From Psilocybe cubensis (Eukaryota): a DNA stretch of 64,000 bases. The stretch is taken from assembly GCA_017499595.2 (NCBI GenBank), contig CM039002.1, forward strand, positions 1,302,001-1,366,000, given 5' to 3'. Below the pieces are notes generated by a model. It made no database searches, was not told the DNA's origin, and saw only the letters and a list, made by a program, of their open reading frames with translations. Shown here in pieces: positions 5,896-47,237 of this stretch. Within the stretch, counting starts at the first letter, position 1. Each line of letters starts with the position of its first letter. The position numbers were made by a program, and so were the translations under genes.

Positions 5896-7339
5896 CTAGT
5901 GGGTATGACTATGGCCATTCATATGGCCATTGAGGGGAGAATGAGCGTGGCCGGTACTAGCTCCATTGCCAACGGGAATTTCGCGGTGTTGATGAATGTC
6001 GTGGATGACCCCAGCAGCCCCTCTGATATAAGCACTTCCACGCCCGTAGTATCCACCTCCATAGATGTGTAGGTTTTCTGCTGCTGTGATAGACGCGCTG
6101 GCGCTTGCATGCCCGACAGCGCCAGTAACCAGGGATTCCATTTGGGCGGAAACATGCTTCATTGCGGATGCTGTAATGGCGGTGATAGCTGTCTCCATTG
6201 CGATGGTGAGCATTTTATGCATCTCAATGGTGACATGCTCCACGGTCGTTTCAGCGATGCTGACGAGGGTCTCCTGCATAACAGGATGTTTTGCGAAGAC
6301 GCTGAGGTCTGGCTCGGCAATGACCTTAAACTTCATCCAAGGAACTTCGCTAAGCATAAGCGATAGCTTTTTATTGAGTTCGATGATGATAAGTACGCCA
6401 TTGGAGTTACGAAGTCGAGTGCGAAGGTCCAGGCGGGCAATTCGGTATTCATCGCCTTTATGTATCCGGTATTTCGCGACTAAAAAGAATCCATCGAGAG
6501 AATATTCGAAGCAATGGGTACTAAATCCTGAGATGTCCCACTGGAGATGGCCGTCGAGAAACCCGATGATTGTGTCGAGGTCAATCTTAGAGTGGACGAC
6601 TGCACCGTCGAGTCGACGACATTGGGCGTGAAGGAATGTTCCTTTGAGCTCAAGCTTCGTGCAAGTTTCCTCAATTAACAGGTGGTGACTTTCACTTGAA
6701 GGGAGCATGTCAAAAAAACGTCTCGAAGAAGATATTAGACATACCGTCTGAATGAAGAGGAAGCAAAGTACGACGATTTAGAAGTCATGGTAGATGATGT
6801 TGAGACTGTGGTGGCGCTTGACATAGTCGATGCCGCAGAGAACATGTTGGACGAACTGGCGGTAGTGGCCGTCGAAGCAGAATTTGCGGATAACATGGCT
6901 TTGGCGACATCTTGCCCTGCAACTAATTTTATGGGTTCAGGCCGTTTGGGTCTATGTTATATATGATGAGATTCGTATAGCTCGGTTGAGAGTCAGAACG
7001 GAAAACACACGAAGACAGTGATAGGGGACGGGTGATGAGTTCCAAAGAACCGTCAACGTTTTTGATGTGGCGGTTTAGATCGAGATGGCTCTCGGTAGCC
7101 TTGTCGGATCCTCCTTTGGACCTTGCTGTGAGAATTCCCTCCGCATTGACTGAGAGACTCTCGGCAGCAGCACTGAAGCCATGGGATCCCCAGGTTAATT
7201 TGCCGTCAATAAAGCCCACATAATCGTCCAGCTTGATGGAAGAACTCGAGAAATTGTTGGTGTCGCGAATCTTGCACTTGGCGGAAAGAACACCGGATTT
7301 TGAGATCGAGAATTCCTTGCAAGAAGATGAAAGTGACAT
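5896..7339 (-). CDS. Double CVNH (cyanovirin-N homology) lectin-domain protein with Ser/Thr linker, helical C-terminal domain and His-rich tail; copy 1
   Basis: Two CVNH-like units (LSAKC..SSIKLDDYVGFIDGKLTW..GF..SHLDLNRHIKNVDGSL and LHAQCRRLDG..SKIDLDTIIGFLDGHLQW..LDLRTRLRNSNGVL). Introns at about 6952-7010 and 6696-6744 keep the frame open. No signal peptide. Confidence 0.85.
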
Positions 7340-9370: not shown

Positions 9371-10793
9371 TTAGGTGTGTTTCGCGATTTCGGCGTAGCT
9401 GTGGTGGGCGTGGCCGTCCGCATGATAGCTTCCATGGGATTCGTAGTGAGCCGAGTGGCCGTTCGATGTCGCGCTATATCCGTAACCCCCAGCTGCACTA
9501 TAGCGTCCACGACCATAGAGGTGAAGGGATTCGGCTGCGGTGATCGAAGCGCTGGCGCTTGCATGGCCCACAGCACCAGAGACCAAAGTTTCCATTTGAG
9601 CAGAGACGTGCTTCATGGCGGAAGCGGTGATAACAGAAATAGCAGACTCCATTGCAATCGTGAGCATTTTGTGCATCTCGATGGTGACATGTTCGACAGT
9701 GCTTTCTGCGATGCTGATAAGTGTTTCTTGCATGACGGGATGTTTAGCGAACACGCTAAGGTCAGGCTCGGCAATAACCTTGAACTTCATCCAAGGGACT
9801 TCGCTGAGCATGACGGAAAGCTTCTTGTTGAGCTCAATGATAATGAGGACGCCATTGGCATTGCGGAGTCTGGTTCGAAGATCAAGACGAGTGATTCGGT
9901 ATTCGTCGCCCGCGTGAGGTTTGTATTTAGCGACCAAGAAGAAACCGTCAAGGGAGTATTCGAAGCAGTGAGTGCTGAATCCAGAGATGTCCCATTGGAG
10001 ATGACCCTCAAAAAATCCGATGATCGTGTCGAGGTCAATCTGAGAGTGGACGAGGGTACCATCAAGACGGCGGCACTGAGCGTGAAGGAACGTGCCCTTG
10101 AGCTCAAGCTTCGTACAGGTATCTTCAATCAAAAGGTGCTGGCTCTCACTGCAAAATAAACAACACGTTAGCACAAATGGTTGACCGCGGTTCGGAAGTA
10201 AGTACCTTCGGAACTTTGTAGAAGAGAAAGCAGCGTATGAAGAAGAAGAAGATGACTTGGTCTCTTTGAATGATGTGGACACAGATGTCGAGGTTGAAGT
10301 TGTTGAGGCAGCAGAGAACATGCTGCTGGCACTGGCAGCGCTGGCGATGCTCGAAACACTAGCCTCAGAAATTCCCCTCAACAGCTCAGGTGCAACGAGA
10401 TGTTTGCCATTGGCATGCCTGTGCGAAGTTACATGTCAGAAAAAGTAAAACAAAATTGTGGGTAGACACTCACGCATCGACTGGGTGTGGGTTGGGAATA
10501 ACCGCCAAGAGACCGTCGTGATTTTGAAGATATATATTAAGGTCGAGTTTGCTTTCGACCGTCTTGCCGTTCACTTTGAATTTGGCAGACAGTACACCGT
10601 TGTGTACATGAACGTCCTCGGCGTGGTGACTGAAACCTCTGCCTCCCCACACAAGTTTTCCGTCAGTTACTCCGATGTAATCATTGAGCGAGATTGAAGA
10701 GTGGATAGTGCTCTTCTTGTCGGCCTTTTTGCAATCAGCAGAAAGAACACCCTTGGTGATGGTGACTTTGTCGCAAGTTTCGGAAAAGATCAT
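9371..10793 (-). CDS. Double CVNH lectin-domain protein; copy 2 (tandem paralog)
   Basis: Same architecture and comparable intron positions as copy 1. Probable 5'-UTR intron at 10795-10848 (GTGCGT..CTAG) and TATAAA near 10934-10939 on the minus strand. Confidence 0.85.
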
Positions 10794-42786: not shown

Positions 42787-44948
42787 TCACTTGCGCGATA
42801 ATGCATTCTTAGTGAATATCGAATTCACTAGACTAGACGACATAGATCTCTGGGGAACACGCTCATCTTGCTTCAAAGGTGAAAGTACCGACGGTATACC
42901 CAACGCATCGTCGACCTATAGCCAAAAAAAAAGTCCACCCATTATTAATATTACATGCAAAATGTACAGGAAAGAAGCAGAAGCAAATCAGCGCACCTGT
43001 GCCAAATTCAACGTATTAAAAGCGAACGGTCCAACGTTAGCAGCAAGAGGTATAAGTTTCCGTTTCTTTTTCTTCGGAACTTTCTCGTCATCGCCATCAT
43101 CGTCCTCGCCGTCTTTCTCCTCGCGGTCTGTGTCTGCTCGGGATACCGGCTGCTTGCTTCCCGCCCGTCTCGCTTTGTTAGGTTTCGCAGCAGGCGCCTC
43201 CCGCGCTTCACTTGGCGCTCTCGAGCTCTTCTTCGATCCCTTTGGCTTCTCCACAATTTGCGGTATATCTGCGTCATTTTGCTCCGTTGCCTTTCGTTTA
43301 CCCTTGGAATTTCGAGGCACAGCAGCAGCAGTAGCAGCAGCAGCATCTTCATCCTCGGCATGTTCACGTTCGACAGCTTTAGCTTTTCCTTTCCGTTTGG
43401 TGGTAGGAGCAGGCTGTTCCATTTCGTGTTCAGATATTTCGACGATGTCTGGGTCATCATCAGGGGTAGTGGTGGTGGTGGTGGTCGGGGGTTTCTTGCG
43501 ACGAGGTGGCATGCCGCCTGTTGACTTCCTTGCTATCTGCCGTTGATTTTTGCTGGGTTTGTCCTGGTCTTCGCGAGCTTTCGAGCTTGTCGCCTTTGAC
43601 GATGCTTTTTTACTGGCTGCAACGGGCTCCTCTTCTTCGATTTCTTCGATTTCGTCGTCGTCGACTTCCATTGGAGGAGGAGAGGTTGGTTTCCTAGATT
43701 TCTGCTGAAAACGCTAGTTGGTATTTTTGTGATGATTAGAGTAAAAAGACAGCATACGATGGGTGAAGGTCGGATTCGGGATCGTTCTTCTTCAATGTCT
43801 GCCTTGAGTTTCTCATTGGCTTTCTGAAGCTTGGCCATTTGCTTTTTGAGACTCTCATTTTCTTCCTCATGATTATTTGACTGACTCTGTTGACCAATGA
43901 GGACATGTAAGGCATAAACATAACACAATATTACTCACCTCCAATTCTGCCAAGGCATCTTTTGTTCTCTGCAGTCGGTTATGCGCCTTTTCGAGATCTC
44001 GTGCTGCCTTCTCGGTGTCATGTTCATACGCCTCCTTTATTTCGCGGAGCTCCAGTTCGAGTGCCACTATTTGTTTACGTTGTTGCTCAGCGGCTTCGCC
44101 CTCTTTGTTTTCTAGACTCTGCCATCGTTCAAGCTGGTTGGACAGGCTGGCTTTCTCTCGTTTGAGTTCATCAGCGAGGCGGTCGGCATCTGATAGCTTG
44201 TTTTGTAAAGCTTCCATGTTCAACGTTGTTCTCTGAAACTTTGTTTCCAGAGATTTGATCTCGTTCTCGAGAACAGCGTTTTTCGCGGTCAGATCGACGA
44301 CTTCAGCCTATTACAGTGTCAATGAAAGGGCTTGGAAATGGAATGAGAAACATTACCGACATCTTTAGCGTCCCTCTCCTGCTTTGCGATCCTGAGAGCA
44401 TTTCGCACTTCAGCCAACTGGAGTTTATTCGACTCGCGCGTTTCCTTGAGTTTCGCCAGATACGCCGCAGACTTTTCCTTCTCCGCTTGCAGCTCCCTCT
44501 GCATCTCCTCCGCAAACTCCGCCCTCTCCTCCTCCATCTCCTCCACCCTCCTCTCCAACTCCTGCTCGCGCATCTGAAAGCGCGTGATCTTCACATCCCG
44601 CTGGACCCTCAACAGCTTCTCCTCGCGCGTGATCGCCATCTCCCTAATCACCGCCGCGCGCTCCGTCTCGACTTCGACCTGCAGCTTCTTCTGCACGATG
44701 CGGTACGAGCTGAGCACGGCCTCGCAGCCTTCCTTCCACAGCTTTTGGTTCGCGTCCCATTTGGCTTGGATCTCGAGCACGGCGTCCCGTGTGCGCGCTT
44801 GCTCGTGGGAGACTTGGTCGGTGAGCTTTTTGATGGTGTGTTCGAGCGTGCGGTTGCGCTGCACGAGGTCGTCGATTTGCGCTTGGTTGGCGGCTTCGAG
44901 TGACGGAGGGGCTTTGGAGAAGTGGGGTCCTGCGTGCCGGAGGGACAT
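42787..44948 (-). CDS. Long coiled-coil protein with a basic disordered C-terminal half containing an H3-tail-like motif; possibly Mde4/Lrs4 (monopolin)-like
   Basis: Heptad-rich E/K/R exons, then ..QIARKSTGGMPPRRK.., KKKKRKL and LSPLK near the C-terminus. The monopolin resemblance rests only on recalled terminal motifs. Confidence 0.7.
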
Positions 44949-45291: not shown

Positions 45292-47237
45292 ATGGCTCCC
45301 TCCAAACCGGCCAAGAACATATCCCTCAGAGTACCGAGACACAATGCGCAGCGGATCAACGTCAAGCTGTCGGCGGAGGTGCAGAACCAGGCTAGAATGC
45401 AGCGGGTGCTGGTAGACGTCGTCCAGCCGAGCTCGAGGCTGTCGCAGGCCATTGTGTGTAAACTGAGTGTTATCTGTTTTTTTAAGGCGCTGAAATGGGT
45501 ATATCTAGGAAAGCGCATCGGATTGGAATTCATTGCTTATGACAGCTAGAGCCGAACGCGGACCACAATGGGACGTTGGCACACAACAGTCCGTCACCTT
45601 TGCTGCTAAATTGTTATAGTCATATTTCTAACAAACATCCAATATTCAGATTCCTAGTCGACAAATACTCTGATTTATACTATGACCCCACACCTCTGCT
45701 AGAGACAGTTAAAAAGTTGACAGAAGACGAGCACGGACCTGAATCAGGCTTGCAGAGCCAACAACAGCACCAGCACCAGCAACACCAGCATCAGCAGTCG
45801 CACCGCGACCACCGGGAGCACCAGCTTCCATCGCACCATCCTCCGCACGCGCCGTCCTCCTTCCAGCCCTCCCTCCCACCTCGGCACCAAACGCCGATGC
45901 GGGACAGAGACTTTGGGATGGCGCAGCACATGGCGCGGGACCAGTCCCCGCACCGACATCCAGGCGGCGGCGGTGGTGGTGGTGGTGGAGGAGGCCCCGG
46001 TGGCCCTGCGCAGGGGAACTACCCATACCCGCCAGGGATGAACATGCGTGGGCCGTCGAGCGGTGGGTTCCCTGGTGGAGGAGGACCATCGGGCGGCTCT
46101 CCGTTCAACCCAGCGGCGAATAGGTATATGGCGGCGGATCCTACGACACCAATACGCGGAGGAAGTGGGATGGGGATCTCGTCTCCTATAGGTGGTGATG
46201 GTATGCGACCTAACATGGGTGGTGGAGGAATGGGAGGAATGGGAGGAGGAATGGGACCTGCAGGGATGGGAGGGGGGATGGGAGGAGGAATGGGACCAAG
46301 TGGCATGGGAGGTATGGGAGGGGGCATGGGAGGAGTTGGCATGGGAGGTGGTGGTATGGGCGCAGGCGGCATGGGAGGCGGCGGTATGGGATCAGGCGGC
46401 ATGGGAGGCGGCGGGATGGGATCAGGGGGTATGGGTGGTGGGGGAATGGCAGGAGGTGGTATGGGCAACATGGGAGGAGGAATGGGCAACATCAGTGGAG
46501 GAGGCATGGGCAATATGGGGGTAGCAGGAATGGGCAACATGGGCGGAGCTGGAGGTATGGGCAATATCGGCGGCGGCGGCGGCGGGATGGGGAATATTTC
46601 AGGGGGCGGGATGGGTCCTATGGCCGGAGGGATGGGCAACATGTCAGGCGGAGGAATGGGCAACATCGGTCCCATGGGTGGAGGCGGCATGATGAATATG
46701 GGAGGTGGTATGCCCAATATGGCCGATCGAACAATGGCTGGTATGGGTGCAAACACCATGGGAGGAGGCGGCGGCATGGGTGGTATGGGCGGCATGGGCA
46801 TGGGCGGTATGGACGGCGCAGGGATGGGCAACATGGGCGGAGGTATGGGTGGCGGCATGGGCGGAAGCGGCGGCATGAACGCAGGCATGGGCACCGGTGT
46901 GGGTCCCATGGGCGTCGGCATGGGCGTCGGTATGAACTCGGGCATGGGAGGCATCAACTCGGGCATGGGCGGGATGGGCGGCGGGATGGGCGGGATGAAC
47001 GCTGGGATGGGCGGGATGAGTGCTGGGATGGGAGGCATGAACCCCGGGATGGGCGGCGGCGGGATGAACGCAGGCGTCGGCGGGATGGGCATGGGTGTCG
47101 GCGGGATGGGCATGGGCGGGATGGGAGGCGGGATGGGCATGGACCACGCGAACCCGATGGCTGCAGGCAACATGGGGATGGGCATGAACATGTCTCCGAG
47201 GGGGATGAACAGAGGCATGCCAGACGGTTACAACTGA
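45292..47237 (+). CDS. Protein with a ~100-aa N-terminal domain, a Q/H tract and a very long Gly/Met low-complexity domain
   Basis: Spliced N-terminus MAPSKPAKNISLRVP..SQAIV|SRAERGPQWDVGTQ|QFLVDKYSDLYYDPTPLLE. The open last exon to TGA 47237 is dominated by GGM/GMG repeats with varied codons. Confidence 0.8.

Follow-up and report, generated by a model that had tools for sequence, protein, structure and literature searches.

Does the tail of a mushroom coiled-coil protein hold a functional copy of the histone H3 tail, or is the likeness accidental? This question is raised by a gene on the minus strand of a 64,000-nucleotide window of the Psilocybe cubensis genome (contig CM039002.1 of assembly GCA_017499595.2, positions 1,302,001 to 1,366,000 of the forward strand; all coordinates below are counted from the first letter of this window). 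The gene product contains a 15-residue segment, RQIARKSTGGMPPRR (hereafter the motif), that aligns in register with H3 residues 4–18. The initial annotation of this locus, made from the sequence letters, proposed that the protein may dock on heterochromatin machinery, or act as its decoy, through a methyl/phospho switch at the equivalents of K9 and S10. The comparisons reported here indicate that the motif is an expressed short linear motif under selection, that it arose by a single gain at the root of one Agaricales clade, where it has been retained since, and that it is absent from the rest of an Agaricomycetes-wide protein family. The favored reading, to which we assign a probability of roughly 0.5, is that the motif serves as an H3K9-like substrate or docking site, which would tie a rod-shaped protein to an H3K9 methyltransferase and, once methylated, to a methyl-lysine reader.

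Reading of the P. cubensis codons (43542..43498, minus strand) bears out the alignment that had been proposed. The motif is identical to H3 at 10 of the 13 positions from Q5 to R17, the equivalents of K4 and K18 are arginine, K14 is methionine, and the K9–S10 pair is intact. When the 67 residues around the motif were compared blindly by phmmer with 177,635 sequences of the Protein Data Bank (PDB) at E ≤ 10, 45 matches were obtained, and all 45 were histone H3. The top match (E = 0.053; PDB 9uus chain H) is an H3 K14M peptide, which was also the sole match of the whole exon 4 product at the same threshold. This peptide is engineered and shares by coincidence the Met14 that is unique to P. cubensis; studies that employ H3K14M deal with K14 methyltransferases and NuA3. 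Composition-preserving shuffling of residues 360–640 (200,000 replicates) never reached 10/13 and reached 9/13 once. Moreover, no 13-mer exceeded 6/13 identities to H3 in the 150 motif-less members among the 178 family proteins. A lone 10/13 match could still be luck in a very large scan, and conservation is therefore the decisive test.

The motif is present in 28 of the 178 family proteins, in 18 distinct 13-residue versions. Three columns, the equivalents of H3 A7, K9, and P16, are invariant (18/18 each). The remaining columns hold Q 14, R 3, V 1 (at H3 Q5); V 8, I 6, T 4 (T6); R 16, K 2 (R8); S 7, T 5, K 3, R 3 (S10); T 14, I 2, S 1, P 1 (T11); G 15, N 2, A 1 (G12); G 17, S 1 (G13); R 8, K 8, M 1, P 1 (K14); and P 13, R 3, K 2 (A15), while the R17 column is variable. 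The resulting consensus, Q-x-A-R-K-S/T-T-G-G-K/R-P-P, matches H3 at 11 of 12 positions, with T6 counted among the allowed residues. The claim that K9 is the only lysine retained holds in a wider sense, as it is the sole lysine that never varies among the versions. The A-R-K-[S/T] core is complete in P. cubensis (ARKS) and partial across the versions, with S or T in 12 of the 18. The Hebeloma versions (ARKKING) have neither residue in the core, and two close relatives of the P. cubensis protein, P0056 and P0065, read QIAKKSTGG, with K at the R8 equivalent. Other features emphasized by the initial annotation turned out to be local: the methionine at position 14 occurs in P. cubensis only, and the arginines at positions 4 and 18 have no conserved counterpart. 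Two versions are closer to H3 than the P. cubensis copy, namely KRTRQVARKSTGGKPPP of Crepidotus, in which the likeness extends further N-terminally to include the R-T located before K4 of H3, and RTARKSTGGKPPK of one further family protein.

These columns might also be explained by a conserved basic short linear motif unrelated to histone-tail machinery, such as an AT-hook-like contact with DNA or RNA through G-R-P, or another docking function, with the likeness to H3 being compositional convergence. K, R, S, T, P, and A abound in the tail, the family has several further conserved islands, position 15 never agrees with H3, and G-R-P, which is the core tripeptide of the AT-hook, occurs in 7 of the 18 versions. 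However, the AT-hook is defined as an R-G-R-P core flanked by basic residues, and the motif has G-G-[R/K/M/P]-P instead, with R-G-R-P in none of the 18 versions. The arginine of G-R-P is replaced by K, M, or P in 10 of the 18, whereas the best-kept residues (A7, K9, and Q5) are dispensable for an AT-hook. No AT-hook or other Pfam family was detected in the protein, and the agreement of the consensus with H3 contrasts with the ceilings of 9/13 in the shuffles and 6/13 in the motif-less relatives. An AT-hook-like or other non-histone role is considered the less likely explanation.

The distribution of the motif points to a single origin. Among the 48 full-length (at least 450 residues) aligned homologs, nine have the motif and 39 lack it. 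In a maximum-likelihood tree of 55 full-length homologs, inferred with the motif masked (P0009, P0169–P0171, and P0182, which are near-duplicates or isoforms, and P0180 were excluded), 11 carriers fall inside one group of 12. The Shimodaira–Hasegawa-like approximate likelihood-ratio test (SH-aLRT) support of this group is 93, and that of the next node outward is 95. The motif label changes twice on this tree, compared with a mean of 10.2 changes for shuffled labels, and none of 500 shuffles had a value as low. The named carriers, Psilocybe and dark-spored relatives, are Psilocybe cubensis, Flammula alnicola, Cyclocybe aegerita, Agrocybe chaxingu, Gymnopilus dilepis, Hebeloma cylindrosporum, Agrocybe pediades, Crassisporium funariophilum, Crepidotus variabilis, and Panaeolus cyanescens. 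The named non-carriers include Crucibulum, Cyathus, Macrolepiota, Leucoagaricus, Asterophora, Arthromyces, Tricholomella, Blastosporella, Amanita, Mycena, Roridomyces, Dendrothele, Marasmius, Pleurotus, and Hohenbuehelia, as well as all named members outside Agaricales. The twelfth member of the group, a 494-residue model from Gymnopilus junonius (P0014), lacks the whole region. This model skips about 90 tail residues directly after RPPSPQV, such that the lack of the motif is explained equally well by an error in the model and by a real loss. These patterns indicate that the history of the motif comprises one gain, with the second change being either a loss or a gap in the gene model. In motif-less lineages, [V/E]-A-G-P-S is often found in the same part of the tail (the equivalent of 43560–43620, minus strand), and G-P-S has persisted upstream of the H3-like motif in Flammula and Agrocybe pediades. 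A protein search restricted to residues 400–480 returned only the query itself, and a metagenome search for loci suited to codon-level comparison matched 597 stretches, none of which was confirmed.

Within the clade, every full-length member keeps the motif, though the flanking tail falls to about 30–50% column identity. When 13-residue windows of ten full-length carriers were ranked by mean top-residue fraction, the window Q418–R430 scored 0.76, whereas the tail averaged 0.505 (sd 0.124). With this score, it ranked third among 264 windows and is the second-best non-overlapping island of the tail, behind a C-terminal motif. The alignment of orthologs, which had been suggested as a check for a conserved island, thus gave a positive answer. 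These findings also bear on the possibility that the motif is a chance resemblance in a functionless, drifting piece of low-complexity tail. Very many windows were scanned and most of the family lacks the motif, as such a chance origin would have it. However, retention throughout the clade despite diverged flanks, the three invariant columns, and the fact that the only motif-less clade member is a shortened model make pure chance highly improbable.

The motif lies in the frame of a spliced transcript. The coding region has five exons (Table 1), and its product of 640 residues (P0006) corresponds to the NCBI entry "hypothetical protein JR316_0005903 [Psilocybe cubensis]" (over exon 4, the two are 100% identical). 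Contigs from runs X1 and X2, which belong to one study and whose kind ("RNA?") is a guess and which are not recorded as RNA, skip 42914–42994, 43705–43757, 43887–43938, and 44307–44359. These gaps are exactly the four predicted introns (81, 53, 52, and 53 nucleotides), all of which are GT..AG on the minus strand. The spliced contigs span 43360–43704 and 42995–43426 and cover the motif without any difference, whereas the DNA run X3 covers the locus unspliced and without joints. Because the contigs splice across all predicted introns and cover the motif, its place in the mRNA frame, on which the proposal depended, is secured. At 43313–43359, a GCA/GCT-type trinucleotide run encodes AAAATAAA. The X1 contigs break there, and the repeat is longer in the loose end of one of them, a hint of either length variation or a limit of the assembly.

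The description of the product as a coiled-coil protein with a disordered basic region and no histone fold also agrees with the structure prediction. AlphaFold2, run with a 40-sequence alignment, predicts helices at residues 17–254 and 271–356, mostly with a predicted local distance difference test (pLDDT) score above 80–90. Residues 357–640 have no predicted secondary structure and a pLDDT below 50 nearly throughout, and the same is true for the surroundings of the motif (residues 413–427). The protein is thus predicted to consist of a helical rod of about 340 residues and a disordered tail of 285 residues. No Pfam family passed the cut-off in any exon, in the full protein, or in nine relatives, and no helix follows residue 356, which speaks against a histone fold. 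The conserved KKKKRK cluster in the tail suggests a nuclear location; a second nuclear localization signal was deemed unnecessary and dropped because this family-wide cluster exists.

The substitutions allowed in the motif fit the published specificity of SUV39-type enzymes, and an H3K9-like substrate or docking site was adopted as the preferred reading for this reason. Clr4 is reported to prefer R at −1, "S > K, R > T" at +1, and "T >> C > S" at +2 (PMC7700585). For SUV39H1, which reads K4 to G12 and loses all activity without R8, the reported tolerance is R, K, S, and T at +1, small residues at +2, and G, K, and Q at +3, and SUV39H2 is described as reading R8–G12 with contributions from T6, A7, G13, and K14 (PMC8303541). 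The four residues found at +1 of the motif are the set accepted by Clr4 and SUV39H1. Under the H3K9-like reading, a cassette in the disordered tail that copies H3 residues ~5–16 would lead the H3K9 methylation system to treat the protein as it treats an H3 tail. A SUV39/Clr4/DIM-5-type methyltransferase would be offered K422 as a substrate or pseudosubstrate, and methylated K422 would then be recognized by a methyl-lysine reader, for example, an HP1-type chromodomain. Through such binding, the dimeric rod may become tethered to heterochromatin, or the enzyme may be modulated, in the manner of the H3K9-like motifs of mammalian G9a/GLP, ATF7IP, and SETDB1. Of the docking or decoy role first proposed, the conserved K9 island in a spliced frame stands, whereas the Ser10 switch, K14M, and K4R/K18R do not extend to the clade.

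Several observations weigh against the H3K9-like reading. The R8 equivalent is K in P0056 and P0065, though SUV39H1 needs R8 (PMC8303541). The Hebeloma residues I at +2 and N at +3 are outside the tolerated sets, the six versions with K or R at +1 depart from the ARK[S/T] chromodomain consensus, and A15 of H3 is kept in none of the 18 versions. P. cubensis, as a basidiomycete, is presumed to have Clr4 and HP1 orthologs. The absence of the motif from 39 of the 48 full-length homologs marks it as an add-on and not as the core function of the family. Finally, G13 and P16 are conserved beyond the reach of the quoted profiles of K9 writers and readers, suggesting that another or an additional partner is possible.

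Such a partner may be one that binds the H3 tail independently of K9 methylation, with the motif being a true H3-tail mimic aimed elsewhere. Candidates include an Aurora-type basophilic kinase acting at S10/T11, a KDM4-type demethylase or an acetyltransferase that reads T-G-G-K/R-x-P, a DNMT1/UHRF1-like reader of the DNA-methylation system, and a histone importin. G12, G13, a basic residue at position 14 (K or R in 16/18), and the invariant P16 extend further than ARK[S/T] readers need, and S or T follows the basic residues at position 10 or 11 in 16 of the 18 versions. The mammalian DNMT1/UHRF1 pathway uses H3-like motifs (LIG1 and PAF15). Agaricomycotina are reported to possess DNMT1-RFD enzymes (PMC13297926). 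However, the strictest columns include A7 and K9, at the center of the K9 site. An acetyl-K14 target is disfavored because position 14 is not kept as lysine (R in eight versions, M in one, and P in one), and the Hebeloma core without S/T argues against a universal kinase site. The nuclear localization determinants of H3 past residue 17 are not copied. A partner of this kind is considered unlikely.

A more far-reaching extension of the H3K9-like reading is more doubtful still. In this scenario, the cassette would be a surrogate H3 tail (residues ~2–16 in the Crepidotus version) that turns a non-nucleosomal, cell-cycle-regulated nuclear rod into a methylatable platform read by HP1-type proteins, and it may derive from a captured piece of an H3 gene. 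The protein would then be a fungus-specific scaffold that anchors or organizes heterochromatin, comparable to the tethers between lamina and heterochromatin, in a kingdom that lacks lamins.

Table 1. Positions of the gene, its exons, and the tail elements in the window.
Feature	Position	Strand	Evidence
Whole coding region (5 exons, 640 codons + stop)	42787..44948	-	Joined exon translations 100% identical to P0006; 4 introns backed by spliced contigs
Exon 1, residues 1-196, first part of predicted helical rod	44361..44948	-	Translation, spliced contigs, AlphaFold2
Exon 2, residues 197-319, predicted rod	43939..44307	-	Translation, spliced contigs, AlphaFold2
Exon 3, residues 320-362, predicted rod end and S-P site	43758..43886	-	Translation, spliced contigs, alignment
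Exon 4, residues 363-598, motif-bearing acidic/basic tail, predicted to be disordered	42997..43704	-	Translation, spliced contigs, AlphaFold2
Exon 5, residues 599-640 (42915-42790) and stop, to 42787	42787..42915	-	Translation, spliced contigs, family alignment
H3(4-18)-like motif RQIARKSTGGMPPRR, residues 417-431, exon 4	43498..43542	-	Codon reading, PDB search, shuffles, column counts
K422 codon AAG, H3K9-equivalent lysine, invariant in 18/18 distinct versions	43525..43527	-	
KKKKRK, residues 573-578, family-wide basic cluster, putative nuclear localization signal	43057..43074	-	Conserved across Agaricomycetes homologs
Family-wide C-terminal motif GIPSVLSPLKQDERVPQRS, exon 5	42844-42903	-	Family alignment

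For the protein family, a profile search of 1.84 billion representatives yielded 318 relatives at E ≤ 1e-3, 82 of them at E ≤ 1e-30. The named members, all "hypothetical" or "uncharacterized," belong to Agaricales, Boletales, Polyporales, Russulales, and Phallales. The PDB, when searched by profile, yielded generic coiled coils only, and the ESM Atlas gave unannotated Ascomycota coiled-coil clusters at 0.90–0.91 with a structural template modeling (TM) score of at most 0.35, which are leads only. Family-wide islands of the tail include an acidic D-S-D-I-E-E-I patch, K-G-K-A-K-A, and an F-x-F element. Those common to Agaricomycetes are K-K-K-K-R-K followed by I-N-x-F-P and the C-terminal G-L-N-I-P-T/S-x-L-S-P-V-K...V-P-x-R-S, which has an S-P-x-K site inside; these two elements define the family better than the rod does. 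The S-P site in exon 3 reads RPSP in P. cubensis and RPPSPQK in most relatives. S-P-x-K conforms to the consensus of cyclin-dependent kinases (CDKs), and the S-P-x-K sites are possible CDK sites. Several identities were considered for the protein and rejected. For an intermediate filament or lamin rod, P0006 has no match to the Pfam Filament family, the best relative scored 26.3 bits compared with a cut-off of 40, and the lamin matches in the PDB profile search are as weak as the tropomyosin, myosin, and phage gp26 matches. XRCC4 scored 16.9 bits compared with a cut-off of 26.2, and shugoshin, CtIP/Sae2, and Csm1 had no match above threshold.

Among ten long open reading frames surveyed in the window, the domains found were cyanovirin-N homology (CVNH; two), WD40, endonuclease/exonuclease/phosphatase, Svf1, and peptidase M48, and no chromatin factor was found among these ten. 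The two CVNH frames (5896–6777 and 9371–10435, both on the minus strand) have one domain each (E = 1.9e-15 and 9.8e-15, respectively). The divergent neighbor of the motif gene (45543–47237, plus strand) is an open frame of 564 codons with a Q/H-rich start followed largely by G/M repeats (GGMGGGM...). It has no Pfam family and looks like a very unusual low-complexity, prion-like protein. Both G+C content and GC skew climb sharply over this frame.

Compared with the H3 N-terminal tail itself (residues 1–20), the motif shares Q-x-A-R-K-S-T-G-G-x-x-P-R in register, and PDB searches return H3 alone. The Psilocybe protein differs in having neither a histone fold nor a free N-terminus, as the motif begins at residue 417; K4, K14, and K18 are not kept in the mushroom motif, and A15 is replaced. 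Among K-to-M inhibitors such as H3K9M, which is reported to trap Clr4 (PMC5030085), and EZHIP, the resemblance is a methionine in an H3-like context in P. cubensis. However, this methionine occupies position 14 instead of replacing the target lysine and is confined to 1 of the 18 versions. No version has M at K9, and the logic of a K-to-M inhibitor, which the initial annotation had brought in, accordingly does not apply. Viral mimics, such as the ARKS of SARS-CoV-2 ORF8 and influenza NS1, likewise hold a short H3-like stretch in a non-histone protein. These are pathogen proteins aimed at the host, whereas the mushroom motif is in a vertically inherited cellular gene. The role of ORF8 is itself reported as disputed (PMC10833455).

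The nearest parallels are the mammalian H3K9-like mimics. The ARK[S/T] peptides of G9a, GLP, ATF7IP, SETDB1, and DNMT3A are reported to be methylated by H3K9 methyltransferases and then bound by the chromodomains of HP1 or MPP8 (bioRxiv 10.1101/2023.12.21.572340; PMC10611923), with K16 being the site in ATF7IP, K44/47 those in DNMT3A, and those in G9a and GLP being automethylation sites. Further examples include LIG1 K126 and WIZ (PMC10611923), and related mimics are treated in PMC6172828 and 10.1101/2025.10.22.683908. Among the papers listed on H3K9-like motifs and H3 mimics, considered mostly by title and abstract opening, none mentions a cellular fungal H3K9-like mimic or this family. The mammalian and fungal motifs have in common an A-R-K-S/T core in a disordered part of a non-histone protein that is nuclear, or in Psilocybe probably so. 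They differ in that the mammalian core has four residues, while the fungal copy has up to 10 of 13 H3 residues, from Q5 to P16. The fungal motif is found on an unannotated coiled-coil protein that, as far as known, is not a methyltransferase subunit, and a third of its versions have K or R at +1. Modification and binding are known for the mammalian motifs and are predicted for the fungal one.

To our knowledge, histone mimicry by cellular proteins has been documented almost only in mammals, usually with a copied core of four residues. Here, a fungal clade keeps a copy of 12–13 residues of the H3K9 segment on an unannotated protein, with a clear evolutionary start and motif-less sister lineages that serve as natural controls; unlike the mammalian motifs, it is traceable to a single gain. 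If the motif is methylated and read like H3K9, the H3K9 writers and readers of mushrooms have non-histone clients. This would provide the first functional handle on an Agaricomycetes-wide protein family, and the natural variants (R8K, K/R at +1, and K14M) would constitute a specificity series for fungal SUV39-type enzymes and chromodomains. Two of the carriers, Cyclocybe aegerita and Hebeloma, are in use as laboratory species. Cellular mimicry of histone H3K9 is a known phenomenon, to which this clade appears to add a fungal case with unusually strong evolutionary support.

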